A DNA stretch of 64,000 nucleotides, taken from an uncultured Candidatus Bathyarchaeia archaeon (GTDB lineage Archaea; Thermoproteota; Bathyarchaeia; TCS64). The notes under the pieces were generated by a model. The model was given only the letters and a program-made list of their open reading frames with translations, made no database searches and was not told where the DNA came from. The stretch is taken from assembly GCA_964587735.1 (NCBI GenBank), contig CAZPMB010000001.1, positions 15,464 to 79,463 of the forward strand. Reading direction: 5' to 3'. Positions 1 through 52,220 of the stretch are shown here, one piece after another. The number at the start of each line of letters is the position of its first letter. The stretch's first letter is position 1. The position numbers were made by a program, and so were the translations under genes.

Positions 1-459
1 CCCGCGCCCAAGGTGCTCGAGGCCGGCCTCCATGTCCATGATCAGGACCTCATCCCTCTGGATGAGGAGGTGCTGGACAATCACCCTCAAGAGGGCGTTG
101 GCCGGGCACATGCAGCCGGTGTCGCCGCCCTTGACGGTGCCCATCACCAGAAGCTTCACGCCGTCAGGGCCGACTACCCCGAAATTCTCGACGACGTCGC
201 TCACCGTTGGAGTCAGCCTGAATAGCTGCCCGTAGGACCTCCCAGGCGCAACGCCCGTCTTCTCCTGAATCAGAGCCTCATTCTCCGAGAGGGGGACGAT
301 CTTGTCGGCTACATCGGATGGGATCCCGAGCGATGAGGCGGTGTTTATGTTGGGGTCGGCGTCAACGACAAGCACTTTATAGCCTTCCCTTGCGAGCAGC
401 CTCGCCAGGGTGCCCGAGACGAAGGTCTTGCCCACTCCGCCCTTTCCGGCTACGGCCAT
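1..459 (-). CDS. cooC: CooC/AcsF-type nickel-insertion ATPase (MinD/ParA family), 5' part only; the C-terminus runs off the window start
   Basis: Reverse complement of 444-459 gives MAVAGKGGVGKTFVSGTLARLL... (Walker A GKGGxGKT), and DADP and MDMEAGLEHL motifs match the downstream CooC paralog. The minus-strand frame is open to position 1. Confidence 0.75.
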   Translation of the reverse strand, partial: MAVAGKGGVGKTFVSGTLARLLAREGYKVLVVDADPNINTASSLGIPSDVADKIVPLSENEALIQEKTGVAPGRSYGQLFRLTPTVSDVVENFGVVGPDGVKLLVMGTVKGGDTGCMCPANALLRVIVQHLLIQRDEVLIMDMEAGLEHLGRG

Positions 460-466
460 CTTCAAC

Positions 467-1255
467 TTAGGTACCTCCTTTCAACACTTCTAAGCCGATC
501 CTATGGGCTATCTTTCCAACTGCCATGTAAGCGGGGGAGTCGTCGGGGAGACCGAGCAGGGGTCTGCCCGCCATGTTGTAGGATGCTATATTTTCATCCA
601 CGGGCAGGATTCCAGCCAGCTCTATTCCGATATCTTTGGACGCATTCTTAAGGACGCCCACCGTCCCCTTTTGGAAACAGTTGCCAACAAGGTAGATCTT
701 CTTGACGCCGATGTGAACCTCCTTGGCGAGATCCTTTATCCGCCTCGCCGTCTCCAAGCCCATCTTCGAGGGATCCGTGACGATGAGCATGACGTCGACA
801 TCCCTGTCCGTCCTCCGACTGAGGTGCTCCAGCCCGGCCTCCATGTCGAGAAGGGTTACGGAGTAGTTCCCAGTCAGGGTGTCGAGGATCCTTGTGAGGA
901 CGTTGTTGACGAAGCAGTAGCATCCCTCCCCCTCGGACCGGCCCATGGCGAGGAGGTCGAACCTCTCACCCTCGACGAGGGTCTCGAAGACCCATGCCTC
1001 TAATATGTCCCTCTTGGGGACCGTTGGAGACAGCGTGCCCTTCTCTATCTGGTTCTTCATCTCCCTGGAGGCTTGGCCGACGGTCCTGGCGACCTTCACG
1101 CCCAAGACATCGGGCAGGTTGGTCGAGGGGTCAGCGTCCACGACGAGAGGCGTCTCCCCCGTGTTCTGGATAATCCACTTGAGGAGTAGGGCCGTGAGGG
1201 TGGTCTTGCCGGCCCCTCCCTTCCCCGAGACGGAGATGACTGTCTTCCTCGCCAT
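467..1255 (-). CDS. cooC: CO dehydrogenase/ACS nickel-insertion accessory ATPase CooC
   Basis: 262 aa, MARKTVISVSGKGGAGKTTL Walker A, VVDADPSTNL, MEAGLEHLSRRT (MinD-type deviant Walker). Sits at the 3' end of the cdh operon. Confidence 0.85.
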   Translation of the reverse strand: MARKTVISVSGKGGAGKTTLTALLLKWIIQNTGETPLVVDADPSTNLPDVLGVKVARTVGQASREMKNQIEKGTLSPTVPKRDILEAWVFETLVEGERFDLLAMGRSEGEGCYCFVNNVLTRILDTLTGNYSVTLLDMEAGLEHLSRRTDRDVDVMLIVTDPSKMGLETARRIKDLAKEVHIGVKKIYLVGNCFQKGTVGVLKNASKDIGIELAGILPVDENIASYNMAGRPLLGLPDDSPAYMAVGKIAHRIGLEVLKGGT

Positions 1256-1297
1256 CTAGAATCTCATCCGGACGATGATAGAAAAAGGTTGGGGAAA

Positions 1298-2713
1298 CTA
1301 CTCCTCCGGGAAGGGCTTCCACTTCTCTTCGAGGTAGCTCGCTATTCCTGAAGAGTCGAGGGGTCCGACGGACACGGTCCATCCGGAGACCTCCTGGATC
1401 TCGCCGCTCAAGCGAGCTGCCCTACCCGGGATCACGAGGTGCCTGTGTTTCACGAGGTCCCCGACCTTGTAGCTCTTGATGGCCTCGCCGATGATGTCGG
1501 CGGTCAGCTTCCTGCCGGCAACCGCGCTCTCGACAGAGATCCCCTCGGTATCGACGACTACGAGGTAGCAGGTTACCTTCGCCGACTCGATGTCTGACGC
1601 CACTGTGTAGTAGGTCAGGGCGAAGTTGGTCGTCATCAGAACCGGGGATAGTTCGTTAGGCTCGCCGAAGGTCCTCACCCCCGCCTCGACCGAGACGGGT
1701 TTCCTGGGGTCTGTGTACAGGTTCTGCCTGAGGATGACGAGGGGGAGCATGGACCAGCCTGCCACGCTGTGGAGGATCAGCACGTCGGAGAACCTAGCCA
1801 CAAGGGCAGAGGCGATCACCGCCTCGTTCCACTCGTTGATGACGGGGTCCTCGGCCTTCTCGGCCCAAGCGACCATCGGTGCCCCGAGCATGGGGAAGCC
1901 GAGGAACTCCTCCTCCTCGTTGATGGCGTCCCACCTGAGGATAGTGAAGTTGTTTATGGTTGCGGAGAGCCCATCTTCGGCCTGGGTACCCGGATCTAGG
2001 ACGATGTCCTCGACGCCGTACTCCCAAAGGGTCCTCGCGATGGACTTGAGCGTGTTTAGGTCGAATGGGGCCGAGGCGACGATCGGGCACTTGTACATGA
2101 GCGCTAGGTCGGCCATCTCCCTCCAGTTATTTTTATTTGCCGCGTAGATGAGCGGGCGTTTGTCGCTGACCGAGGAGAGGCCATGTTCCATGACGGTCGG
2201 GTCCAGGGCGCAGAGGATGAGGGGCAAGTCGGTCAGCCCAGCCGCCTTCTTCACTGACGCCTGGAATTTTGCCGCGTTGTTTGAGGTCGACCTGACGGCG
2301 ATCATGTCGAGCCTCAGCTTCATCCCGATGTAGTCGTACTCGAAGCCGGAGGCAGTCTTTATCCTCGCCTCCAACTCCTCATCGGGCATCTCGTCGGTGA
2401 CGTCGATGGCTATCGCCGTTGGGTTGAAGTAGGTGAACTCGTGCCTGTACATTACGTACTCCCCTCCGAGCGTAGCCCTCCTTTCACCGGCGCCAACAAC
2501 AATCGACCGGACTGAGGGCTTCAGCAGGGCCCACAGCTTATCGAACGCGGCCTTGTTCTTCGCCTCGAGGAGTGGTGGGCAGCCCTGGAGCGTCGCCTCC
2601 CTGTTTACAAGCTTCGCGGCGAAGGCCATGCAGTTTGTCTCTCCGCACTCCTTGCAATTTGTCCCAGGCAGCAGCTTGTAGACCTCTATCGGGCTCAGTT
2701 CCTTCGCTGGCAT
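1298..2713 (-). CDS. cdhE: Acetyl-CoA decarbonylase/synthase gamma subunit (corrinoid iron-sulfur protein large subunit)
   Basis: 471 aa. N-terminal CKECGETNCMAFAAKL Fe-S motif followed by the TIM-barrel and corrinoid-binding regions typical of CdhE/AcsC. Operon context. Confidence 0.85.
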   Translation of the reverse strand: MPAKELSPIEVYKLLPGTNCKECGETNCMAFAAKLVNREATLQGCPPLLEAKNKAAFDKLWALLKPSVRSIVVGAGERRATLGGEYVMYRHEFTYFNPTAIAIDVTDEMPDEELEARIKTASGFEYDYIGMKLRLDMIAVRSTSNNAAKFQASVKKAAGLTDLPLILCALDPTVMEHGLSSVSDKRPLIYAANKNNWREMADLALMYKCPIVASAPFDLNTLKSIARTLWEYGVEDIVLDPGTQAEDGLSATINNFTILRWDAINEEEEFLGFPMLGAPMVAWAEKAEDPVINEWNEAVIASALVARFSDVLILHSVAGWSMLPLVILRQNLYTDPRKPVSVEAGVRTFGEPNELSPVLMTTNFALTYYTVASDIESAKVTCYLVVVDTEGISVESAVAGRKLTADIIGEAIKSYKVGDLVKHRHLVIPGRAARLSGEIQEVSGWTVSVGPLDSSGIASYLEEKWKPFPEE

Positions 2714-2723
2714 CAGATCCCCC

Positions 2724-3941
2724 CTAAATCTTGAGCGTGACCCACTCCGTGGTCTCGCTCGGCTTCTTTCCGCTCATCAGGTTGCTGATCATCTTCCCAA
2801 CCTCCCTTGCAGCGGCCGGATGCATCATCATGAAGTAGTCGACGCCTGCCAGGAGGAGCGTCTGCCCGGTGATCGTCTCCCATATCGGCCCCCTCAGCTC
2901 CCTCGGCGACCACTCGGGGCCCATCTTCATCCACGCCTCCCTCGCGGCCCACGCGTTTGTGGTGCCGGAGGAGAGGGGGTGGTTGAGCTCGGGGTCCCCC
3001 TTCAGCGCGGCGAGGCGGCTCCTCTCCATAACGGTGAAGGCGTAGTCGAGGCCGTAACCCAATGCGGCTGTGGTCGTATCCATCACGATCTGGTCCTTTG
3101 GGATGAAGTCGTACAGCTTGCGGTTCAACTCCCTAGCCTTGTTGACGTCCATCGAGGTGAAAGCGATGATCGTGTGGCCATTATCCTTCACGAACTTCGC
3201 CGACGCCTCTATGTCCATGTCCAGGGTCACCGAGTTGAAGAGCAGGCGCTCTCCCTTGGTGACCTCGGCGATGGCCTTGAAGACCTTGAGGTCCTTCTTC
3301 GGGTCGCCGCAACCGCCGATGGCTATGGGGACATCCACGGCCTGAAGCACGTCCTCAGTCTTTTTCACCGCGTACTCCGGCGAGGCACCCTCGATGAGGG
3401 GATCGATCGTCAGGAAGTGGAGGTTGATCATCTCAGCCCCGAACTTGTCGACACAGAGCCTCGCCCACTCCGCCGTGTCCCCGAGGACCTCCCTATAGTG
3501 ATCCTTTACAGCCTTTGCCAGAGGGACCTTTGGCCAGTCGAAGACGTCAAAGGCGATCACCGGCTTGTGGGGCGGCGGGTGCAGAAAGTTGTAGAAGGCC
3601 GGCGCAGACTCGCCACCGATCACCACGTGCGAACCCCTCGACCCACCCTCGGCCCTGGTCGCCCCGAGCCTGACCTCAACTATCTTGCCCGGGTACTCCT
3701 CTCGCGGTATCCCGACCTCAGCCTCGAGCAGCGAAGTCGGCTTTGCCTTCGCTGGAACGATCGTCGGCATCGCCTTCGGAGCTCCCATGATCATTCCGGG
3801 CGTCAGGCTGAGCTCCAGCTCGTCGAAGCTTATCTCAACGTCCTCGAGCTCGATCTGCTGGAACTTCGCCAGGGCCTCCAGGATATCAAGGCTGATCGGG
3901 AGGACTCCCTTTTTCTCGCCCTTCTCCGTCAAGGGGCTCAC
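2724..3941 (-). CDS. cdhD: Acetyl-CoA decarbonylase/synthase delta subunit (corrinoid Fe-S protein small subunit)
   Basis: 405 aa with CdhD/AcsD-like sequence. Its start overlaps the cdhC stop by 4 nt, suggesting translational coupling. Confidence 0.8.
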   Translation of the reverse strand: MSPLTEKGEKKGVLPISLDILEALAKFQQIELEDVEISFDELELSLTPGMIMGAPKAMPTIVPAKAKPTSLLEAEVGIPREEYPGKIVEVRLGATRAEGGSRGSHVVIGGESAPAFYNFLHPPPHKPVIAFDVFDWPKVPLAKAVKDHYREVLGDTAEWARLCVDKFGAEMINLHFLTIDPLIEGASPEYAVKKTEDVLQAVDVPIAIGGCGDPKKDLKVFKAIAEVTKGERLLFNSVTLDMDIEASAKFVKDNGHTIIAFTSMDVNKARELNRKLYDFIPKDQIVMDTTTAALGYGLDYAFTVMERSRLAALKGDPELNHPLSSGTTNAWAAREAWMKMGPEWSPRELRGPIWETITGQTLLLAGVDYFMMMHPAAAREVGKMISNLMSGKKPSETTEWVTLKI

Positions 3942-5323
3942 TTCCTCTCGACTTTTATGATCATCTTCTCCGCCCTGATCTTTGCGTTCTTCAGGATTAT
4001 CTTGAGGCTCATCCCGGCCGGCATACCCTGGATGGGTATAGCCGAGGCCGGCATCTCCAAAGTGGGGACGGTGATCTCCCCGGCCTCCTCAGCGGCCTTG
4101 ACTGGCGCTTCCACCCACTTGCCCACGATGGGGTGGTCCTTGTCCTTCAGCCATGCCCTCAGATCGTCGAGGCCCTTGACGTCGCTCTCTGTGGGTATCT
4201 TGTCCACGATCTCGGGGGGCATGAATTCCTTGATGCGCTCCTTGATCTCGACGGGCATCCAGACGACCCTGTTCCAGCCACCGTCGGCCTGGAGAAACTT
4301 GGGGCTGCGCATGTACTCTATGGATAAGCCGTGGAAGCCGTCGACCTGTCGTCCGCCAGCCGTGAGGTCGGAGATCGTGACGAAGCTGAGGCCATTCACG
4401 GTCTCCCCCTTGAAGTTTCGGTGGACGACTCCGAAGCCGTCGAGCTCCGGTATGTAGAACGCGCACCCCTCGAAGCATCCGCAGCTTGTGTGGGGGTACC
4501 CAAAGGCGGTGTAGAGCTGAACCCGCTCTATCTCTCCTAGGGATTTCTCCCTGATGACCTTGTCGACGCCGTCGTACTCACCCTTCTGCTGGTCGACGCA
4601 CTGCCCCTTGACTATCTCGAAGACGGGTCCCTTGGGGTCGACCTTGGCGGTTGCCCTGCCGTCGAACCAGCTTATGGCGCCGCAGTTCGCGTATCGCTGG
4701 GGGGTGATGACGCAGAGGTGGGTGGGTGCGAAGGACTGGCAGAGGCTGCAGCCGTAGAAGACATCTACCTCGTCGTCGCTCATGCCCCTGGCCCTGGCGT
4801 CCCTGGCCTCGTATATCTTCATCGCCTTCTCGTACCACTGCTTTATCAGACCGGGCTCTGTTATGAAGGTGATTTGGATCTTCTCGATGAACGGCATCTC
4901 GCTCTTGTACAGGCGCATAAGCACTTCCCCCAACAGCTTGAGGCTGTTGAAGCCCCGTTCGAATGACTTCTTGCTCAGCCTAATCTGGATGTCGTACCTC
5001 TGGTTCAGGTGCATGAAGCCCTCGATGAAGTTGGCGTACTCGTGGATCCGCCTCTCTATGACGCCCTCGAGATCCTTCTCGATCTCCTTTCCAGCGACCT
5101 CGATCAGGATCCCGAACGGATGGTTCGTGCCGGCCTCGAGCTCTGGGAGATCCTTATCGACAATTGAGATCTTACCGTCCTTTATCTCGTTGAGCGCCCT
5201 GGCCTGCACGAGCTCGAACTTGTACTGCTCCCGGGGTCCGCCGAGCTCCAACTGCATGTCGCGGCCCCTGATGCGCTCTCCCTCGTAGATGATCCCCACA
5301 CCCACGGGTATGTCCTCGAACAT
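3938..5323 (-). CDS. cdhC: Acetyl-CoA synthase catalytic (beta) subunit of the ACDS complex
   Basis: A-cluster motif HTSCGCFEGCAFYIPELDG. Start moved to the ATG at 5323 (MFEDIPVGV...), which is preceded by a GGAGGGG Shine-Dalgarno and lies 8 nt after the cdhB stop. The ORF track extends to a TTG at 5347. Confidence 0.88.
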   Translation of the reverse strand: MFEDIPVGVGIIYEGERIRGRDMQLELGGPREQYKFELVQARALNEIKDGKISIVDKDLPELEAGTNHPFGILIEVAGKEIEKDLEGVIERRIHEYANFIEGFMHLNQRYDIQIRLSKKSFERGFNSLKLLGEVLMRLYKSEMPFIEKIQITFITEPGLIKQWYEKAMKIYEARDARARGMSDDEVDVFYGCSLCQSFAPTHLCVITPQRYANCGAISWFDGRATAKVDPKGPVFEIVKGQCVDQQKGEYDGVDKVIREKSLGEIERVQLYTAFGYPHTSCGCFEGCAFYIPELDGFGVVHRNFKGETVNGLSFVTISDLTAGGRQVDGFHGLSIEYMRSPKFLQADGGWNRVVWMPVEIKERIKEFMPPEIVDKIPTESDVKGLDDLRAWLKDKDHPIVGKWVEAPVKAAEEAGEITVPTLEMPASAIPIQGMPAGMSLKIILKNAKIRAEKMIIKVERK

Positions 5324-5330
5324 CGACGTC

Positions 5331-5882
5331 TTATTTCCCCTCCTCAACCATCGACACTATTTTTTCTAAAGCCTCTTTCCACTCTTCCTCGCTCATGTTC
5401 CCCAGACTCCAGCTCGCGTTGGGCTGGTAGCTCGCGTCCAAAGAGATCGTTGTCAGGCCGGTCGCGAAGTGTTTCAGCCCGTTGAGCACCAGCCACTCAA
5501 GGTAGTACCGCAGTCCTGCGAAGACGACCAGATCGTACTGGCCCCCTCCGTCGAAACCCCTCCAGTTGGGGTCCCTAAGGCGGTCTCCAAGGTTCATCAG
5601 CGGCATGCTGTTCACCCCTTCGACCCTCCTATTCCTGAACTCGCTTATCAAATGTCCTGTGGCTGCGATCGTGACCTTTCTCTTCCTGTGTAGGCGTATT
5701 GCTGTGTCTATGAGGTCGCCGTCCTTTGTCTGGGTCCTCTTCGCCTCTGAGCCAACGACCAATAGGGGGCGCTTTGACTTCTTCACCATCGCAGCGACAA
5801 TCTCAGGCTTCGGGACGACGAATGCCTTCTTGGGGCCTGCAATCTCAGCGGTCTGCCCAAGGGTCGTTTTAGCGGACATCAC
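5331..5882 (-). CDS. cdhB: ACDS epsilon subunit
   Basis: 183 aa. Position and size match CdhB, and the ATGA start/stop overlaps cdhA. Confidence 0.7.
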   Translation of the reverse strand: MMSAKTTLGQTAEIAGPKKAFVVPKPEIVAAMVKKSKRPLLVVGSEAKRTQTKDGDLIDTAIRLHRKRKVTIAATGHLISEFRNRRVEGVNSMPLMNLGDRLRDPNWRGFDGGGQYDLVVFAGLRYYLEWLVLNGLKHFATGLTTISLDASYQPNASWSLGNMSEEEWKEALEKIVSMVEEGK

Positions 5883-8221
5883 GCCCGCCTCCTCACCATT
5901 CTCTCCAAGAGGGTCGGATCCGGCGTGGCGATCTTGTCCTCGACCCAGCCCTTCTCCCCAAGGACCCTCACAATCTCTTCCCTCATGGTGAAGGGGATGT
6001 CGGCCTGCCTCCTGACGTAGAGGTGGATGTCGTCGGGCATCGAGCCGTAGAGCCTCTGGTGGAGGTCGATGTAGTGGCTGAGCTTAACGGCCCTCCCCTT
6101 GTTCGTGTCGTTTGGGCGCATTGTGAGCTTGGCGACCACGACGATGGCCTCCTCGACCGTCTCGGCGGTGTAGAACAGGTGTTCAGGGGCCGGCCCAATG
6201 TAGACCTGCTCCCCATCCCTTGCGTTGTAGACGACCCAGTCCCCCTCGTTCTCCTTCCTGCCCAGAAGCATCCTCCTGTACTTGGATCCGTGGGGACCAA
6301 CAACGACGGGAATGCCGAGCCTCCAGCAGCCGGCGGCGATGGCGGCCGCCTTCTGGGACATCGCGCCCCAGGCGACGCCCACAGCACCGACCCTGTTGTG
6401 GATGTAGTCGGCTATCTCCTCGTAGTTCGCCCTAAGTGTGCGCTTAGCAAATATGTTTGCGATCTTTATTGCGGCCCCGGTGATGTGGGCATTAGCCACG
6501 CAGCTACCGACGTTCACTAGGCCCCCCGCGTCGAAGTTGCCAGGGTATTTCTCGTACAGGTTGAGGCCTTCCTCGTCTTTCGTCATAGCAATGCTCATCG
6601 CGGAGCACCCAGAGGTTACAACAATGAAGCGCCGCTTCAGGAACTCCTCCGCGATCCTAGCCAGGTCATCCCCGCCCTCGGGGTAATTGGCGCACCCCAC
6701 AAGGGCGACGACGCCGGGGATCTCGCCGAAGACTATGGGCTGGCCGACCTCCCTTATCTCTATGTCCTGGATGGCGCCCCGCCCTACCCTGATCGGGTAC
6801 TTCTCGGCGGCGATCTCCTGCTGGCTTGCTTTCGCCACCATCGATATTATGGGCATACCAACAGGGCACGCGCCCTCGCAACGGCCACATCCAACGCACA
6901 GATCATATAGGTCCGACAGTGGTTCGTAGTCACCGCTCTTCGCCGCTTGTAGAGCTTCGGCGATCTCCAGGTTGTTGGGACAGGCTCGCTCGCATTCCAA
7001 GCAGTTCCTGCACTTCTCGGCTAGCTCGGAGAGCTCTTTCAGTTCGAATGCCTTCGTTCCCCTGCGCTTTCTGACGCCGATAACAGTCTTGGCAGAGACC
7101 TCACCCACCTTCCTAGGCTCGATTATGAGTGCACCGTTTGCGGCTCCGGAGACGAGATCGTTCACGATGACATCGGGATCGTCATCGGTCCTATCCGGAA
7201 GGCCGAGGCAGCTCTTCTCGCTCGTGGCGATGACTGGTATGTCTAGCCGCTTGGCCTCTTCCAGCACGTCGGTCCTGAGGCACTGCTCGTCGACGACGAT
7301 GAGGTCAGGTATCCCAGAGCGGATGAACCTTAGCTGCCACGATATTGGGCCGATTATCTTTGAGCCCTTGTTGTACCGGCTCATGTCGTGGGCTGTGCAG
7401 CAGAGCCCCCCGACCTCAACCTCTCCGAAGAGGTTGTTCTCCATGAGATAGTCGATTATATCGACGCTCGGTAGCACGTTGTGGCCTATGCACATTATGA
7501 CCGGTTTCTTCGGGTCTATCGTGCCGTATCCGAGCTGCGCGAGCGGCGCCTCGGGGTCGCCCTTCGGGAATCCCAGTGTTGCGATCTGCATGATGTCCGC
7601 GACCTCGAGAGCCACATGGTCGAGCATCCCGGCGTGGAAGACCTTCGACTCGAAGTCTAAGTTGCTTCCCTCCTGCCCGGTGTGGGTGGCTGCCATTAGC
7701 TGAACGATCTGGGCCTCGACGTACTCGAGGGCGTCCTCAAGGTCTCTCAATGTCTTGGGCTTTATGCCGCAGACAAGCCGAACATGAGGTGCCTCGACTG
7801 CGGTGTTCAGCGCTACGTCGAGGGGGGCGTCCCTCCCATGCTCCTCCATGATGTGGTCGAGCATGTGCCTGGCGTGGGCCGCGTGGGTTGCGGCTCCGAT
7901 GCAGCAGGCTATCAGGACGATCCTGGACTGCTGAGCGGCCATTGATATACCACAGGCGCCACGCTTGTCGCCCGTCAGGTCGCACTTTCCAAAGGTGCAG
8001 AGGCAGCAGAGGTCGCAGAAGGGCATGTAGAACGGCTTGTATCGCTCTAGGAGCTTCCTGTCCCAGCTCCTGAGTGCGCCGACGCTGGGCATGGGGGTGG
8101 GGCCCATGGGCTCCTCCCATGTCTCGTCGTAGATCCTGCCGACCTCTATCTCCAGCCCCTTGAAGGTGCCGAGAGTCGAGGAGAGTTCATCGATCTTGAG
8201 CTTCAGATCCCTCTTGGACAA
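5879..8221 (-). CDS. cdhA: ACDS alpha subunit (Ni-Fe-S CO dehydrogenase catalytic subunit with ferredoxin-like insert)
   Basis: 780 aa. Cys-rich N-terminus FCDLCCLCTFGKCDL...ACGIS, 2x[4Fe-4S] insert CRNCLECERACP / CVGCGRCEGACP, and C-cluster region CTAHD... Confidence 0.9.
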   Translation of the reverse strand: MSKRDLKLKIDELSSTLGTFKGLEIEVGRIYDETWEEPMGPTPMPSVGALRSWDRKLLERYKPFYMPFCDLCCLCTFGKCDLTGDKRGACGISMAAQQSRIVLIACCIGAATHAAHARHMLDHIMEEHGRDAPLDVALNTAVEAPHVRLVCGIKPKTLRDLEDALEYVEAQIVQLMAATHTGQEGSNLDFESKVFHAGMLDHVALEVADIMQIATLGFPKGDPEAPLAQLGYGTIDPKKPVIMCIGHNVLPSVDIIDYLMENNLFGEVEVGGLCCTAHDMSRYNKGSKIIGPISWQLRFIRSGIPDLIVVDEQCLRTDVLEEAKRLDIPVIATSEKSCLGLPDRTDDDPDVIVNDLVSGAANGALIIEPRKVGEVSAKTVIGVRKRRGTKAFELKELSELAEKCRNCLECERACPNNLEIAEALQAAKSGDYEPLSDLYDLCVGCGRCEGACPVGMPIISMVAKASQQEIAAEKYPIRVGRGAIQDIEIREVGQPIVFGEIPGVVALVGCANYPEGGDDLARIAEEFLKRRFIVVTSGCSAMSIAMTKDEEGLNLYEKYPGNFDAGGLVNVGSCVANAHITGAAIKIANIFAKRTLRANYEEIADYIHNRVGAVGVAWGAMSQKAAAIAAGCWRLGIPVVVGPHGSKYRRMLLGRKENEGDWVVYNARDGEQVYIGPAPEHLFYTAETVEEAIVVVAKLTMRPNDTNKGRAVKLSHYIDLHQRLYGSMPDDIHLYVRRQADIPFTMREEIVRVLGEKGWVEDKIATPDPTLLERMVRRRA

Positions 8222-8377
8222 TGATACACGACCTTAAATGGATCTCTAAAGTCTCCATCTATTTCATTAAAAACCTTATCATCAGCTCTCAATGTTAACT
8301 TCAGTTTTTTTCTTCAGTCACCGACAACGTTTAAAAGCGCTTCGAGGGTAGGTTATTGATCCTTGGAGTTTTCAGAG
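8222..8377. promoter_or_regulatory. Divergent AT-rich intergenic promoter region between cdhA (-) and metF (+)
   Basis: A 156-bp AT-rich spacer carries TATA-like elements (ttttaatgaaat ~30 bp upstream of the cdhA start; tttaaaag at ~8324 upstream of metF). Confidence 0.35.
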
Positions 8378-9310
8378 ATGGTGAATAATCGCCCTGCCTA
8401 TAGCAACCTCATGAAGGACATCAAGAGGGGTAAATTCGTGCTTACCGGGGAGCTGGAGCCCGAAAAGACGACCGGCCTCGATGAGATCCTGGCCAGCGCG
8501 AGGGCCATGAAGCCCTACGTCGTCGCCGCAAACGTGACGGACAACCCCCTGGCGATGGCTTATATGAACTCCCTAGTGCCCTCGTATATCGTCCAGAGGG
8601 AGACTGGGCTTGAGACCGTCTACCAGATGGTCATCAGGGATAAGAACAGGCTTGCTCTCGTCTCCGATGTCCTCGCAGCGGCCCACCTTGGAATAAGGAA
8701 CATCCTCGCAATCTCCGGTGACCACACAGTACTGGGAGACAACAAGGGCGCCAAGTCCGTCTACGACCTCGACTCGGCCCAGTTCGTCTACATGCTGCAC
8801 AAGATGATCGACGAGGGGGTCGACCTAGTGGGAAACGAGATCCACGGCAAGGTGCCGATAAACGTGGGCATCGCGGCCAACCCGAACGCTGACCCCCTGG
8901 AGCCGGAGATCCTGAAGATCGGCAGGAAGGTGAAGATCGGGGCCGACTTCATCCAGACCCAGACCATGTTCGACATGGATCTCATCAAGGAGTTCCTCAA
9001 GGAGGTCGAGAAGTTCAAATGCCCAACCCTCATAGGCATCTTCCCCCTCAAGTCATTCGGCATAGCCGATTTCTTCGACAAGAACATCCCAGGAGTCCAC
9101 GTGCCCAAGGACCTACTCGAAGCGATGAGGAAGTGCAAGGATGAACCCGACAAGGAGAAGCGAAATGTGTTATACGACGAGGTGAACATGGAGTTCTTCT
9201 CTCCGTTCATCAAGGAGATCAGGAAGACGACGAAGGCGGCGGGTATCCACGTGATGGCAGTGCTGTACGAGCGGATATTCGAGCCTCTGCTCAAGGAGAC
9301 TTTGAGGTGA
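8378..9310 (+). CDS. metF: 5,10-methylene-THF reductase MetF (acetogen/Bathyarchaeota type)
   Basis: MTHFR-fold sequence (ISGDHTVLGDNKG...). ATG at 8378 chosen over the TTG at 8363. Confidence 0.8.
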   Translation: MVNNRPAYSNLMKDIKRGKFVLTGELEPEKTTGLDEILASARAMKPYVVAANVTDNPLAMAYMNSLVPSYIVQRETGLETVYQMVIRDKNRLALVSDVLAAAHLGIRNILAISGDHTVLGDNKGAKSVYDLDSAQFVYMLHKMIDEGVDLVGNEIHGKVPINVGIAANPNADPLEPEILKIGRKVKIGADFIQTQTMFDMDLIKEFLKEVEKFKCPTLIGIFPLKSFGIADFFDKNIPGVHVPKDLLEAMRKCKDEPDKEKRNVLYDEVNMEFFSPFIKEIRKTTKAAGIHVMAVLYERIFEPLLKETLR

Positions 9311-9316
9311 GATGGG

Positions 9317-9952
9317 ATGATCATAACTAAGCAGAAGCCGGACGAAGAGATCAAGGAGATGATCGAGCCCTACAAGAAGCTGTTCATAGTCGGCTGTGGA
9401 ACGTGCTCGACTACCTGTCAGACAGGAGGCGAAGAGCAGGTGAAGGACATGGCGAAGAAGCTCGGGGAGAAGGTCATCGGCTCTGCCATGGTCGAGCAGC
9501 CATGCGACATCAGAATCGACAGGAAGGAACTCAAAGATCACAAAGCAGACATTAAGAAAGCCAACGCGATCCTGGTCATGTCGTGCGGCTCAGGTGTACA
9601 GACCGTTGGAGAATACTCTGGTAAGATAGTCCTTCCTGCGCTTGAAACCCTGTTCATCGGAGAGATAGAGAGGATCGGCAAGTTCTACGACAGGTGCCGG
9701 GCATGCGGGGAGTGCATCCTCGATGAGACCGGGGGGGTCTGCCCTATCACACGCTGCGCCAAGGCCATACTCAATGGGCCATGCGGCGGCCAGGTCGACG
9801 GGAAGTGCGAGGTCGGCGGCTACAAGAACGACTGTGCCTGGGTCCTCATCTGGAAGAAGCTGAAGGAGGAGGATAGGCTGGACGTCTTCACGACTTTCAG
9901 GCCACCGAGGGACAACTCGAAGAAGGTGCTGACAACAGAACTCATATTCTGA
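9317..9952 (+). CDS. metV: MetV, Cys-rich small subunit of methylene-THF reductase
   Basis: 211 aa with FIVGCGTCSTTCQTGG, RCRACGECILDETGGVCPITRCAKAILNGPCGG, as in acetogen MetV. Lies 6 nt after metF. Confidence 0.75.
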   Translation: MIITKQKPDEEIKEMIEPYKKLFIVGCGTCSTTCQTGGEEQVKDMAKKLGEKVIGSAMVEQPCDIRIDRKELKDHKADIKKANAILVMSCGSGVQTVGEYSGKIVLPALETLFIGEIERIGKFYDRCRACGECILDETGGVCPITRCAKAILNGPCGGQVDGKCEVGGYKNDCAWVLIWKKLKEEDRLDVFTTFRPPRDNSKKVLTTELIF

Positions 9953-10000
9953 TAATGTCTGATCTCATTCTTTTTACAGTTTTTATTAATGGCTAGAAAA
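9953..10000 (+). terminator. T-rich tract downstream of metV (candidate archaeal intrinsic terminator)
   Basis: ctcattctttttacagtttttatt lies immediately after the metV stop. Confidence 0.25.
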
Positions 10001-10106
10001 ATGAATGAGTATACCTTTTGCCTCTGGAAAAGGATATTAGCTAATCCCCGACTTTATCAGTCGGTGCCTTTGAGACGGTTTTGTCACAGAAATAGGAGAC
10101 AAAAAC

Positions 10107-11834
10107 ATGGTCTACGATGAGATCAGGGCCATCGCATTGAAACACGCAGTTCACAACGCCGCCATACACGATGGCAGGGCGCAGAAAGGTCCAGTGATAG
10201 GTAGGATCTTGGGGGAATCTCCCCATCTGAGGCAGAAGGCAGAAGAGGTTATGACCATTGTCGATGAGGTGGTTCAGCTGGTCAATTCATGGCCCATTGA
10301 GCGTCAAAGAGAAATGCTGCGAGAATTATGGCCAGAACTCCTTGAGGCTAGGAGAAAAGAGGGGAGGAAGGGCCTGCCACCGCTAGAGAACGTAGATAGG
10401 TTCGAGGAGGTACGCACCAGGTTCGCCCCAAACCCAGACGGCCCACTTCACCTGGGGAGCGCCGAGCCAATAATCTTCTGCGACGAGTACGCGCGTATGT
10501 ACAAAGGTAAGTTCATCCTCAGGTTCGAGGACACGTCTCCCGATGTGAAGGCACCGATGCTTGAGATGTACGACTGGATCATGGAGGACCTGAAGTGGCT
10601 CGGCGTCGATGTGCACGAGGTGTACATGCAGTCGGACAGGCTCGATATCTACTACAGACACGCCGAAAAGCTGCTGGAGATGGGTGCGGCCTATGTATGT
10701 ACCTGCAAGTCCTCGGACTTCAAGAAACACTATACAGCTAGCGAAGCCTGCCCCTGCAGGGATAAGCCCCCTGAGGTCCACCTAAATAGGTGGAAAATGA
10801 TGCTCGACGGGACATACGGGAAGGGCGACGCCGTGGTCAGGATCAAGACGGAACTGAATCACCCGAACCCCGCGATAAGGGAGTGGCCGGCCCTGCGGCT
10901 AGCGACTCGTTCCCACCCGAGGAAGGGGAGGAGGTACAGGGTCTGGCCCCTCTACAACTTCAGCTGCGCCGTCGACGACCACGAGATGGCGATATCCCAC
11001 ATCATTAGAGGGAAGGAACACGAGGTCAACACAATCAGACAGAGGTACATATACAAATACATGGGGTGGGAGTTACCGGAGATTATCAACGTGGGCCGGC
11101 TCGGACTCGAGGTGGGCGTCCTCAGCAAGTCGAAGATCCGTGCAGGGCTTGATGCAGGGATTTACAAGAGCTGGGACGACCCTAGGCTGGGGACCCTTAG
11201 AGCTCTCAGGCGGCGTGGCCTCCAGCCGGAGGCAATCAGGGAGCTGATGATCCAGGTAGGACCGAAGCCGATCAACGCAACCTTAAGCTGGGATCACATC
11301 GCATCCGTGAACCGTGGGATCATCGAGCCCATAGCAAACAGGTATTTCTTCGTTAAAGATCCCGTAAAGCTGCGCGTCTCCGGACTTGAACACGAATACA
11401 CAGCAAGGCTGCCACTGCACCCAGACCATCCAGAACGCGGAACCAGAGATTACACCGTTGAACCAGTGAAAGGAGAATCTTCGTTCGAGATATCGAGCGA
11501 CGACGCAAGGGATCTTACTCGTGACAACATCATAAGGCTGATGGGGCTATTCAACATCAAGATCGCAAAAAAAACATCTGAAGTCATACATGCCCAATAC
11601 CACTCCAAGAGCCGCCAAGAGGCCCGAGATGTCAACGCGACTTTCATCCACTGGCTTCAAGAAAAGGAGGGTGTTGAGGCTCGAGTTGTCATGCCTGATG
11701 CGTCGACCGCAGAGGGACGTGCTGAACAAGGTTGCCTGAAGCTCAAGGTGAACGACATGATCCAGTTCGAGCGCTTCGGATTCGTACGTGTAGACAGCAT
11801 TTCTCCGTTCATCGCCTATTTCGCCCACCGATAG
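10107..11834 (+). CDS. gltX: Glutamyl-tRNA synthetase (archaeal type)
   Basis: 575 aa with class-I HIGH-like PDGPLHLGSA and KMSKS-like VLSKSK. AGGAGA Shine-Dalgarno upstream. Confidence 0.85.
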   Translation: MVYDEIRAIALKHAVHNAAIHDGRAQKGPVIGRILGESPHLRQKAEEVMTIVDEVVQLVNSWPIERQREMLRELWPELLEARRKEGRKGLPPLENVDRFEEVRTRFAPNPDGPLHLGSAEPIIFCDEYARMYKGKFILRFEDTSPDVKAPMLEMYDWIMEDLKWLGVDVHEVYMQSDRLDIYYRHAEKLLEMGAAYVCTCKSSDFKKHYTASEACPCRDKPPEVHLNRWKMMLDGTYGKGDAVVRIKTELNHPNPAIREWPALRLATRSHPRKGRRYRVWPLYNFSCAVDDHEMAISHIIRGKEHEVNTIRQRYIYKYMGWELPEIINVGRLGLEVGVLSKSKIRAGLDAGIYKSWDDPRLGTLRALRRRGLQPEAIRELMIQVGPKPINATLSWDHIASVNRGIIEPIANRYFFVKDPVKLRVSGLEHEYTARLPLHPDHPERGTRDYTVEPVKGESSFEISSDDARDLTRDNIIRLMGLFNIKIAKKTSEVIHAQYHSKSRQEARDVNATFIHWLQEKEGVEARVVMPDASTAEGRAEQGCLKLKVNDMIQFERFGFVRVDSISPFIAYFAHR

Positions 11835-11884
11835 GAACGACGAAAAGTGCGTACTATTCCATCCGAACCTTTAAGATACATCAC

Positions 11885-11900
11885 AAGGTTTAAAAATAGA
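11885..11900 (+). promoter_or_regulatory. TATA-box-like element upstream of rpl7ae
   Basis: tttaaaaata lies ~40 bp upstream of the ATG at 11939. Confidence 0.3.
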
Positions 11901-11938
11901 TGTCTGGTTAAAGGGTATGCACACCAGAAGGAAATGAT

Positions 11939-12331
11939 ATGTCTAAAAAAGATGTAGATCCTTCGAAATCCTTCTACGTCAGGTTCGCGGTCCCCAAAGA
12001 GGTCGCGGAGGCGGCTTACGAGGCCCTCAAGATAGCCCATGAGACGGGTAAGGTTAGGAAGGGGACGAACGAGGCGACGAAGTCGATAGAGAGGGGCAAG
12101 GCGAAGCTCGTCGTCGTCGCCGAGAACGTCGAGCCCCCGGAGATCGTCGCCCACATCCCTCTTTTGTGCGATGAGAGGAAGGCGCCGTATGTCTTTGTGC
12201 CCGAGAAGCAGCGATTGGGCCAGGCGGCCGGCCTTCTTGTCGGCTCCGCTGCCGCCGCAATTGAGGAGCCTGGCGATGCGGCGGATTTGGTCAATGAGAT
12301 CGTCTCAAAGCTAAAGGAGATCGTAAGGTAG
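11939..12331 (+). CDS. rpl7ae: Ribosomal protein L7Ae (K-turn binding)
   Basis: 130 aa: [40 protein letters not shown]... Confidence 0.9.
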
Positions 12332-12332
12332 G

Positions 12333-12545
12333 ATGTCCAGAGAGTCCGAGGTCCTGACCCCGGCGACCGTTATCCAGATCCTGGAGAGGACTGGGCTCAC
12401 CGGGGAGGTCATGCAGGTCAGGGTCAGGATCGAGGACGGGCCGGACAAGGGACGAATCATCACGAGGAACGTGAAGGGCCCCGTCAGGATCGACGACATC
12501 CTCCTCCTGAGGGAGACTGAGAGGGAAGCAAGGAAGATCAGGTAG
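12333..12545 (+). CDS. rps28e: Ribosomal protein S28e
   Basis: 70 aa: [48 protein letters not shown]. Confidence 0.9.
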
Positions 12546-12553
12546 GGAAATCG

Positions 12554-12736
12554 ATGCCCCAGGTATACAAGTGCAGCTTCTGCGGCTATGACATCCCGCC
12601 GGGTACGGGCATCAACTACATCAGGCGGGACGGTAGGGTCCTCAGGTTCTGCTCGAGCAAATGTAGGAAGAACGCCCTCAAGCTGAAAAGGGACCCGAGA
12701 AAGTTCAAGTGGACAAAGGCCTACGTCAAGCGCTGA
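12554..12736 (+). CDS. rpl24e: Ribosomal protein L24e
   Basis: 60 aa: [40 protein letters not shown]. Confidence 0.9.
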
Positions 12737-12784
12737 GACCCAATCCTTAAATCAGATACGACGATATCTCTTGGAGGCTTCCGA

Positions 12785-13303
12785 TTGTACGAGGAGACCC
12801 TAGTCATCCTTAAGCCCGACGCCCTCGAGCGCCGTCTGGTCGGGAGCATAATCAAGAGGTACGAGGATGTGGGTCTCGAGGTTTTAGATATACGCTTTAT
12901 CTCCAACGTGAGCGAATCCCTCATCAATCAGCATTATCCCACATCGATGGCGCGAGGCCTTGGCGAGAAGGCGCAGAAGGCGATGAAGGGCATCATAGAC
13001 CCGGAGGCCCATGGTAAGTTGGTTCTGGAGAGGCTTCGGAAATATTTTACGAGGGGGCCGGTCATCGCCATTAGGATAGGGGGCGAGGACGCAATACAAG
13101 TTGTCAGGAGGGTAACGGGTTACACGGATCCAGCTACCGCTGAAAAGGGAACGATAAGGGGGGATTACGCCGCAGACTCCATCTTGAAGAGTACCAAGGA
13201 GGGCAGAGCATGCGAAAACCTCATCCACGCATCCGGCGACATCAAGGAGGCCATGAGGGAACTGGACCTCTGGTTCCCTAGAAAACGAAACCCTATTTCC
13301 TGA
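12785..13303 (+). CDS. ndk: Nucleoside diphosphate kinase
   Basis: ETLVILKPDALERRLVG..., catalytic-His region NLIHASGD. Conserved archaeal position after L24e. TTG start as in the track. Confidence 0.85.
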   Translation: MYEETLVILKPDALERRLVGSIIKRYEDVGLEVLDIRFISNVSESLINQHYPTSMARGLGEKAQKAMKGIIDPEAHGKLVLERLRKYFTRGPVIAIRIGGEDAIQVVRRVTGYTDPATAEKGTIRGDYAADSILKSTKEGRACENLIHASGDIKEAMRELDLWFPRKRNPIS

Positions 13304-25278: not shown

Positions 25279-26886
25279 ATGTTCACCAAACAAGGGGGGA
25301 TAATTGAAAGAAGCTTAAATAATTCCCGATCAGATGAACATTTTACAAGTTGGCCTCGAGGTGATCGGTTGAGGGAGATCAAGCAAACGGAAAGCCTGTG
25401 CCCTGAATGTCTGAAAGTACTATCAGCCACGATATTCGAGGACAATGGAAGGGTATACATGCGTAAGGTGTGCCTCGAGCACGGGGAGTACACCGATCTT
25501 TATTGGGACAGCTACGAGGACTACGAAAGGGCGCTACGTTTCGATCACCTTGGTACGAAGCTCAACAATCCGAGGACCAAGGTGAAGAAGGGCTGCCCCT
25601 TCGACTGCGGCATATGCCCCGAGCACAAGTCCCACACGGTCCTAGCCATCGTGGACGTCACCAACAGGTGCAATCTCAGGTGCCCAATATGCTTTGCTCA
25701 TGCAGGGGCCGCTGGTTACCTTTACGAGCCAACAGTCGAAGAGATAAGGGGCATGCTAGGGAATCTGATGGCGAATGATCCGGTCCCCCCTCCGGCCCTT
25801 CAGTTCAGTGGCGGCGAGCCCACCGTGCGGGATGACCTCCCGAACCTCGTGAGAATGGCAAGGGAAATGGGCTTCTTCCACATCGAAGTCAACTCGAATG
25901 GAATAAGGATGGCGGAGAGCGTCGACTACTGTAAGGCACTCAAGGACGCAGGGGTCAGCACGGTCTACCTACAGTTTGACTGCGTTACCGCTGAGCCGTA
26001 CATCGTTGCAAGGGGGCACAACCTTCTACCAATAAAGCTGAAGGCCCTTGAGAACCTCAAGGAAGCCGGCTTCCGGAGCGTCGTGCTCGTGCCCGTGCTC
26101 GTCAGAGGGGTAAACGACGACCAGGTAGGAGACATCATACGCTTTGCAATCGAGCACAACGACGTCGTGAGGTGCGTTAACTTCCAACCGGTGGCATTCA
26201 CGGGCCGGATAAACAAAGAGGATAGGGAGAAAATGCGAATTACCATCCCCGACCTTATTCGCTTGGCTGAGGAGCAGACGGACGGGCTCATCAAACGCTC
26301 CGATTGGTATCCAGTCCCATCGGTTGTCCCCTTTGTCGAGTTCATGAGCAATCTGAAGAACCGAAATTACGTGAGCTTCATGGCCCATCCCCACTGCGGC
26401 ATGGCGACATACCTAATAGTAGAAGGTGATAAAGTAAAACCAATCACCCAATACTTCGATGTCGATGGATTCATAGAGGCCCTTGAGATCGCGAACAAGA
26501 GATTGAAGAAGGGGCAAAAAACAAGGGCGAAGATGACTATGGCGTCGGCCGCCCTGAAAAAGATAGACATGGGCATGTTCCGAAAGTACATCCTTCCAGT
26601 TATTACCCGCGGTGACTACGAGAGCCTCAGCGAACTGCACCACAGGGTGATAATGATCGGCTCTATGCATTTCATGGACCCCTACAACTTCGACCTTGAG
26701 AGGGTAAACAGGTGCGTCATACATTATGCGACGCCGGATGGCAAGATCATCCCATTCTGCACAATGAACACATTGCACAGGAAGAATATCGAGAAGAAAT
26801 TCGCACAACCTCTGGACGCCTCCAAGCTCACACCCTTAGCCAATATCGATGAGCTGATGGGAAGGAAAGAAGCGGCTGACGAGTGA
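25279..26886 (+). CDS. Radical SAM enzyme, Tes/GDGT-MAS-like (candidate tetraether lipid synthase)
   Basis: 535 aa. N-terminal Cys cluster CPEC...CLEH, then CPFDCGICPEH and VTNRCNLRCPICFA (two CX3CX2C motifs), then GGEPT. The architecture is like archaeal MJ0619-type radical SAM proteins. Confidence 0.6.
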   Translation: MFTKQGGIIERSLNNSRSDEHFTSWPRGDRLREIKQTESLCPECLKVLSATIFEDNGRVYMRKVCLEHGEYTDLYWDSYEDYERALRFDHLGTKLNNPRTKVKKGCPFDCGICPEHKSHTVLAIVDVTNRCNLRCPICFAHAGAAGYLYEPTVEEIRGMLGNLMANDPVPPPALQFSGGEPTVRDDLPNLVRMAREMGFFHIEVNSNGIRMAESVDYCKALKDAGVSTVYLQFDCVTAEPYIVARGHNLLPIKLKALENLKEAGFRSVVLVPVLVRGVNDDQVGDIIRFAIEHNDVVRCVNFQPVAFTGRINKEDREKMRITIPDLIRLAEEQTDGLIKRSDWYPVPSVVPFVEFMSNLKNRNYVSFMAHPHCGMATYLIVEGDKVKPITQYFDVDGFIEALEIANKRLKKGQKTRAKMTMASAALKKIDMGMFRKYILPVITRGDYESLSELHHRVIMIGSMHFMDPYNFDLERVNRCVIHYATPDGKIIPFCTMNTLHRKNIEKKFAQPLDASKLTPLANIDELMGRKEAADE

Positions 26887-41682: not shown

Positions 41683-41819
41683 GGTGTTCTCCCTCAATCA
41701 ACGGCGACGGCCGAATGGGCATCACTAACTTTTTTATAGACACAGTTTGGTTCGTTATAGAGGTCTGACGAATAGATGAATCGGTTTTATCCACAAATCG
41801 GTGAAGATAATTGAACGCG

Positions 41820-42842: not shown

Positions 42843-42843
42843 T

Positions 42844-43689: not shown

Positions 43690-43690
43690 T

Positions 43691-44446: not shown

Positions 44447-44447
44447 A

Positions 44448-49084: not shown

Positions 49085-49093
49085 TGAAACCAC

Positions 49094-52204: not shown

Positions 52205-52220
52205 TGATCATCTTCCTCGG

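Follow-up and report, generated by a model that had tools for sequence, protein, structure and literature searches.

Does an archaeal acetyl-CoA decarbonylase/synthase (ACDS) operon that stands back to back with genes for MetF and MetV, the former annotated as a methylenetetrahydrofolate reductase (MTHFR), encode a hybrid of bacterial and archaeal pathways or an archaeal pathway throughout? The question is raised by a stretch of 64,000 nucleotides from an uncultured Candidatus Bathyarchaeia archaeon (contig CAZPMB010000001.1, forward-strand positions 15,464 to 79,463; referred to below as the window). Here, cdhA-B-C-D-E and two genes for CooC-like ATPases occupy the minus strand from position 1 to 8221, while metF and metV follow divergently on the plus strand, as determined from the map of open reading frames (ORFs) and profile searches. 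A first-pass annotation had interpreted this locus as a methyl branch of the bacterial, tetrahydrofolate (THF) type, coupled to an archaeal carbonyl branch by a shared promoter. All genes named there were recovered where it had placed them (ORF map, Pfam and NCBIfam). However, MetF falls into an archaea-only clade, and the genes which recurrently accompany its relatives belong to tetrahydromethanopterin (H4MPT) and F420 metabolism. The answer proposed here with moderate confidence is that MetFV reduces methylene-H4MPT to methyl-H4MPT for the neighboring archaeal ACDS, within an archaeal and not a hybrid pathway.

Family and origin of MetF and MetV

The MTHFR family profile PF02219 covers residues 19–305 of MetF (98 bits, cutoff 24), and a profile built from the MetF clade matches the solved MTHFR structures of human, yeast, Thermus and E. 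coli with E-values from 1e-17 to 1e-8. In these alignments the GD(H) and (Q)TQ motifs, both invariant in the MetF alignment, coincide with the RGD and ITQ motifs of the solved enzymes and correspond to Asp120 and Gln183 of E. coli MTHFR. The Glu of the TGELEPE motif is likewise invariant; since the PDB alignments stop short of this position, its equivalence to Glu28 of E. coli is inferred. In the E. coli enzyme Glu28, Asp120 and Gln183 are catalytic or pterin-binding residues, of which Asp and Gln bind the pterin ring (PMC11094777). These contacts to the pterin ring are common to both cofactors, and conservation of Asp and Gln therefore does not tell folate from H4MPT.

The partner protein MetV contains 13 Cys residues, with CxxCxxxC and CxxCxxC motifs among them. 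Across the clade, metV always adjoins metF or is fused to it; a solved structure of MetV or of a MetFV complex was not found by sequence search. Judged from these matches, MetF is a flavin-type TIM barrel of the MTHFR family and MetV its predicted Cys-rich Fe-S partner. The earlier assignment of MetF to the MTHFR family, with MetV at its side (PF02219, PF12225) and as opposed to a Mer-like protein, is thereby upheld.

When 1.8 billion cluster representatives (clusters at 50% identity) were searched exhaustively, only about six clusters reached 49% identity to MetF. Behind them the score falls steeply, from about 320 bits to 229 bits and on to 190 bits, and identity does not exceed 44%. Where a source is named, the near clusters stem from Bathyarchaeota, Hecatellales and Lokiarchaeota, and the far ones from bacteria throughout (Clostridia, Brocadia, Thermodesulfobacteriota). 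The proteins most similar to MetF share 91% identity with it and carry the name 'Candidatus Bathyarchaeota archaeon', which bears out the earlier guess that the DNA stems from Bathyarchaeia. In the nearest species-representative genome MetF is 86–87% identical to that of the window, and the exact MetV of the window is found only on 14 short metagenome contigs, each below 6 kb.

In a neighbor-joining tree of 140 sequences, all MetFs derived from archaeal loci are united in a single archaea-only clade of Bathyarchaeia and Asgard sequences; for a subset of 64 taxa, this clade appeared in 97 of 100 bootstrap replicates. Identity of the window MetF amounts to 80% within its own subclade, 54% to the other archaeal members and, as a mean, 34% to bacterial representatives. 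On the evidence of this tree, MetF is not of bacterial origin and belongs to an archaea-only branch; the label 'bacterial-type' can not be maintained.

This clade of Bathyarchaeia and Asgard sequences agrees with the 'ANME-1-type' MetF clade of Chadwick et al. 2022 (PMC9012536), which comprises uncultured archaea only (ANME-1, Ca. Syntrophoarchaeum, Ca. Alkanophaga, Hadarchaeota, Bathyarchaeota, Verstraetearchaeota and Asgard), always occurs with MetV and has been proposed to act on H4MPT. The present tree was calculated without sequences of ANME-1 and Syntrophoarchaeum, the link to both resting on the statement about Bathyarchaeota in that report. Pairing of MetF with MetV, restriction to archaea and distance from bacterial MetF are common to the window and the 'ANME-1-type' clade. 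Differences concern the gene order, which is metF-metV in the window and metV-metF in that clade as well as in acetogens, the divergent junction with cdhA, and the adjacent HdrA/MvhD of Syntrophoarchaeum and of many Bathyarchaeia and Asgard loci, which the window lacks.

Conservation and promoters of the cdhA-metFV arrangement

Scanning species-representative genomes, one per species, with the MetF alignment yielded 80 loci (designated by L and a number), onto which ten proteins of the window were mapped by tblastn. Within the subclade with at least 72% MetF identity, in 22 loci from 21 species-level genomes (lowest MetF identity 72%, in L032), cdhA adjoins metF-metV in divergent orientation, in most cases together with a full cdhABCDE. 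The same layout is present on one 89-kb metagenome contig, and in two further loci of the subclade cdhA is 1–4 kb off. Both the 89-kb contig and the complete genome CP070784.1 show the series cofE, cooC, cooC, cdhEDCBA facing metF, metV, gltX, rpl7ae, rps28e and rpl24e. Four loci (L005, L007, L010 and L020) have metFV without cdhA upstream. The remaining Bathyarchaeia and the Asgard archaea (50–61% MetF identity) display the order metV-metF, with some genes fused, and in ten of these Bathyarchaeia loci a cdh operon lies within 10 kb of metV-metF in convergent orientation. Divergent and convergent layouts together imply that the linkage between metFV and cdh arose or persisted in two architectures.

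The pairing of cdhA with metFV is not a product of chance. The first-pass annotation, which had staked its interpretation on the presence of metFV in related genomes, is confirmed on this point by the 21 species-level genomes with the same layout; the same genomes contradict its view that such a tight locus is rarely seen. The locus is an ordinary core acetyl-CoA-pathway (Wood-Ljungdahl) cluster of one Bathyarchaeia lineage.

Several peculiarities were observed along with these layouts. The order metF-metV is confined to the subclade of the window, and metV-metF is found everywhere else in the clade. In several Bathyarchaeia (L043, L045, L050 and L064, here at about 9250–10900; protein P0122) MetV and MetF form a single polypeptide of about 545 residues. 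About 20 kb from its full locus (L008), CP070784.1 has part of the divergent pair once more (L004, 7512–10936): a lone cdhA (product of 780 residues) faces a lone metF (309 residues) across the same promoter-like boxes, with pyruvate:ferredoxin oxidoreductase genes beside cdhA; cdhB-E and metV are missing from this copy. Its CdhA and MetF are 86% identical to those of the window, compared with 82–83% for the full locus. This copy may represent true paralogues or have arisen in assembly. On a Promethearchaeota contig with two copies of MetF, one of them (L075, 3671–4609) groups with the Bathyarchaeia subclade (90/100 bootstraps), which indicates either transfer or mis-binning. Typical Bathyarchaeia loci on two contigs labeled as bacterial, a cdh-metFV locus in L031 (Krumholzibacteriaceae) and a metVF locus in L042 (Pirellulales), are probably mis-binned.

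The longest metF ORF opens with a TTG at 8363. This start was rejected, since an alignment of the 22 orthologous intergenic regions identified the ATG at 8378 as the conserved one, at a fitting distance from a Shine-Dalgarno-like GGAG. The divergent gap accordingly measures 156 bp (8222–8377), in agreement with the first-pass annotation. Within the gap, two TATA-like boxes of opposite orientation are situated about 64 bp apart, and the approximately 55 bp between them are not conserved among the 22 loci. The box on the cdhA side is kept as ATTAAAAAC / ATTATAAAAC-TTAT in the closest relatives, while on the metF side almost every one of the 22 loci has TTTAAA(A/T)G, TCTTAAAA or TCTAAAAA in the corresponding alignment columns. 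The predicted transcription start sites lie near 8244 (minus strand) and 8360 (plus strand). Neither a single shared control element nor overlapping core promoters were found in this alignment of the gap. Instead of the shared promoter that had been assumed, each gene set appears to possess a TATA-box core promoter of its own, the two being arranged back to back and not demonstrably shared. Co-regulation of both sets by a lineage-specific factor would be compatible with separate boxes.

The G+C content at third codon positions (GC3) is 0.82 in metF, 0.76 in metV and 0.72–0.85 in the cdh genes. Comparable values are reached by ribosomal-protein genes (0.75–0.89) and the gene for the TATA-binding protein (TBP, 0.80); gltX has 0.68 and other window genes 0.55–0.73. 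This elevated GC3 in cdh, metF, metV, TBP and three ribosomal-protein genes accounts for the 60% GC in the first 8 kb. Across positions 1–13303 the pattern seems to reflect codon bias linked to expression and not a foreign source. From this common codon signature, cdh and metFV are probably expressed together at a high level; the signature is also the sole positive hint of their co-regulation.

Pterin, electron donor and direction of MetFV

In order to define the genomic company of metFV, 1,220 ORFs from 83 related loci were clustered and the recurrent clusters annotated. An F420-dependent mtd (NF002162, 392 bits) stands beside metF in eight loci, and in L071 fwdDBAC (TIGR03121, 817 bits; TIGR03129, 577 bits) faces the series fer4-mvhD, metV, metF, mtd. 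A true mer (TIGR03555, 420 bits, cutoff 349) is located near metVF in about 14 loci and takes part in mer-metV-metF operons in Frey- and Jordarchaeia. Moreover, metVF occurs near cofE and FrhB-like genes in the clade, and HdrA-MvhD, NfnB-like-MvhD, Fer4-MvhD or an MvhAG-like hydrogenase are fused to it or adjoin it, the HdrA-MvhD or NfnB-like-MvhD fusions being placed directly upstream of metV in relatives. Within the window's own subclade, 10–11 loci carry FwdC (TIGR03122, 249 bits, cutoff 131) and an MptN-like ligase (270 bits, under its cutoff of 350) beyond cdhE. One member (L032) has fwdDBA, and in the closest relatives cofE adjoins the cooC pair. Two loci (L021, L025) contain fer4-mvhD between metF and metV as well as an Mvh-like hydrogenase and RACo, and loci of the L015 type encode a 2-oxoacid:ferredoxin oxidoreductase downstream of metFV. 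Folate-branch genes were not part of this company: neither fhs nor folD nor a gene of the acsE type is among the recurrent neighbors in the 83 loci, and neither Fhs, FolD nor an AcsE-type methyl-THF:corrinoid methyltransferase is encoded by the approximately 55 ORFs scanned in the window. This company favors an H4MPT-linked role of MetFV, and from context tetrahydromethanopterin is a more likely pterin than folate, in fact the most likely one.

Some of the neighborhoods have further features. In four loci of Jord- and Freyarchaeia (L059, L063, L070 and L082, at about 5500–10900), a distant MetF paralogue (23% identity, 280 residues) precedes true Mer, metV and metF in an operon-like series, so that Mer and MetVF are encoded side by side, and an HdrA-MvhD fusion and two Lrp/AsnC regulators are located upstream. 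Behind the ferredoxin-MvhD insert of L021, L025 (10001–15350) and L019, in a sister group of the window's subclade, follow genes for an MvhA/MvhG-like [NiFe] hydrogenase, RACo, two cooC and cofE; this order suggests an H2-driven MetFV in these genomes. In L005 (970–4750) and L020 (about 1500–4340), genes for DUF166, an MtaC-like B12-binding corrinoid protein and a CooC-like ATPase stand ahead of metF-metV, which hints at a link to corrinoid methyltransferase systems. Finally, a 276-residue 'PterinBD-DUF4346' protein is encoded next to cofE beyond the cooC pair in L016, L021 and L025 (e.g. L021, 19945–20775) and may be related to pterin cofactor metabolism.

In the proposed mechanism, MetFV would do or share the job of the F420-dependent Mer. 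The Fe-S clusters of MetV would accept electrons from a low-potential donor, which could be ferredoxin, by analogy to the clostridial MetVF, an FMN/Fe-S enzyme that in vitro uses reduced ferredoxin and not NAD(P)H (PMC8760232), or a separately encoded module of the Hdr/Mvh type as in the relatives; F420H2 would not be expected to serve MetFV. From MetV the electrons would reach the flavin of MetF, which would reduce methylene-H4MPT to methyl-H4MPT in the reversible last step of the methyl branch. CdhDE would then move the methyl group to the corrinoid and further to the A-cluster of CdhC, where it would join CO delivered by CdhA and CoA. The two CooC-type ATPases would insert nickel into ACDS. 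As all steps are reversible, the net direction could be either acetogenesis or the oxidation of methyl or acetyl groups.

Several observations weigh against this assignment. No gene of the H4MPT branch (fwd, ftr, mch, mtd, mer) or of H4MPT biosynthesis is present in the window. The first-pass annotation had named a complete H4MPT methyl branch in the organism as evidence against its hybrid; such genes are found in relatives and the branch is asserted for Bathyarchaeia in PMC10321748, but the window itself does not contain them. Likewise, no hdr or mvhD gene stands next to metFV or elsewhere in the window, and because no Hdr/Mvh module adjoins metFV, any electron donor named here is conjectural. 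Since many relatives encode true Mer alongside metVF, MetFV is not a simple replacement of Mer; it may be a parallel reductase with an electron donor other than that of Mer or have a distinct role. For the archaeal MetF clade as a whole, pterin specificity is put forward as a hypothesis with no assay cited (PMC9012536). The TATA boxes are candidates, called from archaeal consensus and conservation only. Moreover, Wuzhiqiibiales and Mazuousiales are reported to have a folate methyl branch and the reductive glycine pathway besides a complete H4MPT pathway (Hou et al. 2023, PMC10321748), and the window carries a three-gene formate dehydrogenase cluster at 46379–52697 on the minus strand. Its products are an FdhA of bacterial style (TIGR01591, 913 bits), which begins with a 2Fe-2S/NuoG-like module, a NuoF-like/GltD-like fusion of 1036 residues and a NuoE-like 2Fe-2S protein; the set resembles electron-bifurcating or NAD-linked formate dehydrogenase complexes. 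Owing to the folate branch reported in two Bathyarchaeia orders and this formate dehydrogenase, a folate role for MetFV has to be kept in play.

Among the alternatives, the one that fares best leaves the enzyme as it is and reverses its direction. ACDS would cleave acetyl-CoA, or corrinoid methyltransferases would load the methyl-pterin, and MetFV would oxidize the methyl group towards CO2 in a heterotrophic or methylotrophic host, passing electrons through MetV to ferredoxin or a confurcating module of the Hdr type. An oxidative role has been proposed for the same MetF clade in ANME-1, Syntrophoarchaeum and Alkanophaga or other alkane oxidizers (PMC9012536, PMC10322722), and Bathyarchaeia have been reported to move methyl groups from methoxylated aromatics to H4MPT (PMC10321748); the corrinoid protein, DUF166 and CooC-like genes preceding metFV in L005 and L020 would also suit this direction. 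Conversely, the Mvh-like hydrogenase and RACo at metFV of L021 and L025 suit H2-driven reduction, and the 2-oxoacid:ferredoxin oxidoreductase of L015-type loci suits the assimilation of acetyl-CoA. With every step reversible, direction is unreadable from sequence, and the oxidative variant is regarded as possible but not as the more probable one.

It is unlikely that MetFV is folate-specific, delivering methyl-THF directly to ACDS or serving a separate folate one-carbon network beside cdh (fhs-folD, the reductive glycine pathway or methionine synthesis). The family annotation of MetF as MTHFR and the conserved Asp and Gln, which bind the pterin ring of folate, would fit such a role, the two residues being non-discriminating as explained above. 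In addition to the folate branch and the reductive glycine pathway of the two orders, a methylene-THF reductase has been reported in Bathy-3, -8 and -17 (PMC7886697), and the NAD-type formate dehydrogenase of the window could feed formate to Fhs; among Bathyarchaeia orders, formate dehydrogenase is described as unique to Mazuousiales (PMC10321748). However, MetF belongs to an archaea-only clade far from the bacterial enzymes, and ANME-1 possesses the same archaeal type of MetF without other folate enzymes (PMC9012536). The recurrent neighbors are mtd, fwd, mer, cofE and hdr/mvh, never fhs or folD, and an AcsE-type methyltransferase is missing from the cluster and from the window, while the two orders with the folate branch also have the complete H4MPT pathway.

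Two narrower variants appear doubtful indeed. Either a folate-specific MetFV would hand methyl-THF directly to ACDS without AcsE, with a formate dehydrogenase/Fhs/FolD route as the supply, or MetFV would be a dedicated F420-independent methylene-H4MPT reductase running on ferredoxin reduced by carbon monoxide dehydrogenase (CODH). The folate variant, if true, would be a natural chimera of a bacterial methyl branch and an archaeal carbonyl branch.

That metFV belongs by accident of position to the housekeeping block gltX, rpl7ae, rps28e, rpl24e and ndk, with no tie to cdh, is very improbable: although metFV-gltX is kept without cdhA upstream in the four loci mentioned above, one of them in the complete 1.5-Mb genome CP070640.1, the divergent pair persists in 21 species-level genomes at MetF identities down to 72% (L032), other Bathyarchaeia orders link metVF to cdh a second time and in another way, cdhA and metF are still paired in the partial duplicate of CP070784.1, and the GC3 of metF matches that of cdh and not that of gltX.

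Features of the window and comparison with known systems

Coordinates of the genes and signals in the first part of the window are compiled in Table 1.

Table 1. Genes and predicted signals of the cdh-metFV locus, in window coordinates
Feature	Position	Strand	Evidence
Second CooC/AcsF-like P-loop ATPase, N-terminal 155 residues (gene cut by window edge)	1-465	-	PF01656 CbiA E=1.1e-14
CooC-like nickel-insertion accessory ATPase	467-1255	-	PF01656/PF10609; full-length match to Carboxydothermus hydrogenoformans CooC 3kje, E=1.3e-19
cdhE, ACDS gamma subunit (corrinoid Fe-S protein, large subunit)	1298-2713	-	NF003195 586 bits, cutoff 306
cdhD, ACDS delta subunit	2724-3941	-	TIGR00381 427 bits, cutoff 253; NF003375 500 bits, cutoff 488
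cdhC, ACDS beta subunit (A-cluster, acetyl-CoA synthase), short archaeal form	3938-5347	-	TIGR00316 632 bits, cutoff 356
cdhB, ACDS epsilon subunit, specific to the archaeal type	5331-5882	-	TIGR00315 138 bits, cutoff 101; PF02552
cdhA, ACDS alpha subunit (CODH, C-cluster)	5879-8221	-	TIGR00314 1171 bits, cutoff 781
Divergent intergenic region, 156 bp	8222-8377	.	Sequence read; alignment of 22 orthologous regions
TATA-like box of cdhA, reads GTTTTTAAT on the minus strand	8266-8274	-	About 49 nt 5' of cdhA start
TATA-like box of metF, TTTAAAAG	8330-8337	+	About 44 nt 5' of ATG 8378
Shine-Dalgarno-like GGAG	8365-8368	+	9 nt before metF ATG; conserved alignment columns
metF, predicted archaeal-clade MTHFR-family methylene-pterin reductase (catalytic TIM-barrel subunit)	8378-9310	+	PF02219 E=7.7e-28
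metV, cysteine-rich Fe-S/zinc-ribbon partner subunit	9317-9952	+	PF12225 112 bits; 6 bp 3' of metF
gltX, archaeal glutamyl-tRNA synthetase (GluRS), conserved downstream neighbor outside the pathway	10107-11834	+	NF003169 746 bits

The five-subunit archaeal ACDS is complete, as all of CdhABCDE including the epsilon subunit score above the curated NCBIfam equivalog cutoffs. CdhA matches the solved ACDS alpha subunits 3cf4, 8riu and 9c0q with 794–945 bits, the highest score being obtained with the archaeal 8riu. Of the NCBIfam model for the bacterial alpha/beta fusion, CdhC matches no more than the last 400 positions, and CdhE combines PF03599 with the FeS domain PF04060. For the truncated second ATPase, a full-length orthologue of 265 residues is found at the same position in L001 and L002, with 83–89% identity (tblastn). 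The order A-B-C-D-E, the epsilon subunit, the short beta subunit and the CooC-type maturation ATPases resemble the ACDS of Methanosarcina and other methanogens. In the methanogen layout a single cooC lies within the ACDS operon, whereas two cooC genes follow cdhE in the window, and the host is no methanogen.

The position of gltX is the same in L001, L002, L005, L009, L010 and L011. That the host is an archaeon is evident from window genes for TBP, NucS, TrmB, GluRS of the archaeal type and Tes, which synthesizes tetraether lipids. The window contains neither mcr nor mtr, and Rfam and tRNA scans of it gave no matches. The radical-SAM gene for Tes (25279–26886, plus strand) had been considered as a marker of methanopterin biosynthesis and was rejected, as it encodes the synthase of glycerol dialkyl glycerol tetraether (GDGT) lipids (NF045702, 674 bits, cutoff 450); the Pfam label 'HMPTM' on its N-terminal zinc ribbon can mislead towards methanopterin biosynthesis. 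Situated 32 kb from metFV on the plus strand (41811–45734) is a four-gene operon for a group-3 [NiFe] hydrogenase of the sulfhydrogenase type. The best NCBIfam matches of its large subunit are HydA/ShyA with about 264 bits, far under the cutoffs, and the operon is a possible NAD(P)-linked source or sink of H2.

MetFV may also be compared with other reductases of this step. Like MetVF of the Clostridium ljungdahlii type (PMC8760232, PMC8515935), it consists of a TIM-barrel MetF and a Cys-rich MetV (PF12225), has neither an additional NAD(P)-binding domain nor adjacent Hdr genes, and is found in a Wood-Ljungdahl context. It differs in gene order, which is inverted, in sequence, MetF being about 34–37% identical to the bacterial representatives, and in its archaeal host, which has ACDS and no AcsE in the window; the substrate is probably H4MPT rather than tetrahydrofolate (H4F in this context). 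The HdrA-MvhD and NfnB-like-MvhD fusions of clade relatives recall the MetFV-HdrABC-MvhD complex of Moorella thermoacetica, as far as it is described in PMC9012536 (after Mock et al. 2014), and by this analogy suggest an electron-bifurcating or confurcating supply in the relatives with HdrA-MvhD; the window, with no hdr or mvhD in its 64 kb, differs from that complex as described there. Mer would catalyze the same proposed step, from methylene-H4MPT to methyl-H4MPT feeding ACDS, and, being likewise a TIM barrel, has a catalytic Glu that is analogous (PMC11094777). Nevertheless, it belongs to the unrelated luciferase-like family PF00296, contains no flavin, has no Fe-S partner and uses F420H2 as donor.

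The archaeal MetFV clade has been invoked as a stand-in for Mer in ANME-1, alkane-oxidizing archaea, Asgard archaea and Bathyarchaeia (PMC9012536, PMC10322722). Its wiring to ACDS, Mtd, Fwd, Mer, CofE and Hdr/Mvh, with no folate genes among the recurrent neighbors and with Mer often present, argues for an H4MPT-linked enzyme whose donor is unlike that of Mer. Which cofactor and electron donor archaeal MetFV uses is a biochemical question that comparison of the locus with its relatives sharpens and the locus itself leaves unanswered; compact two-gene metFV units such as the present one are good candidates for heterologous expression. For Bathyarchaeia, a gene annotated as 'metF' should not be taken as automatic evidence for a bacterial-type Wood-Ljungdahl pathway.

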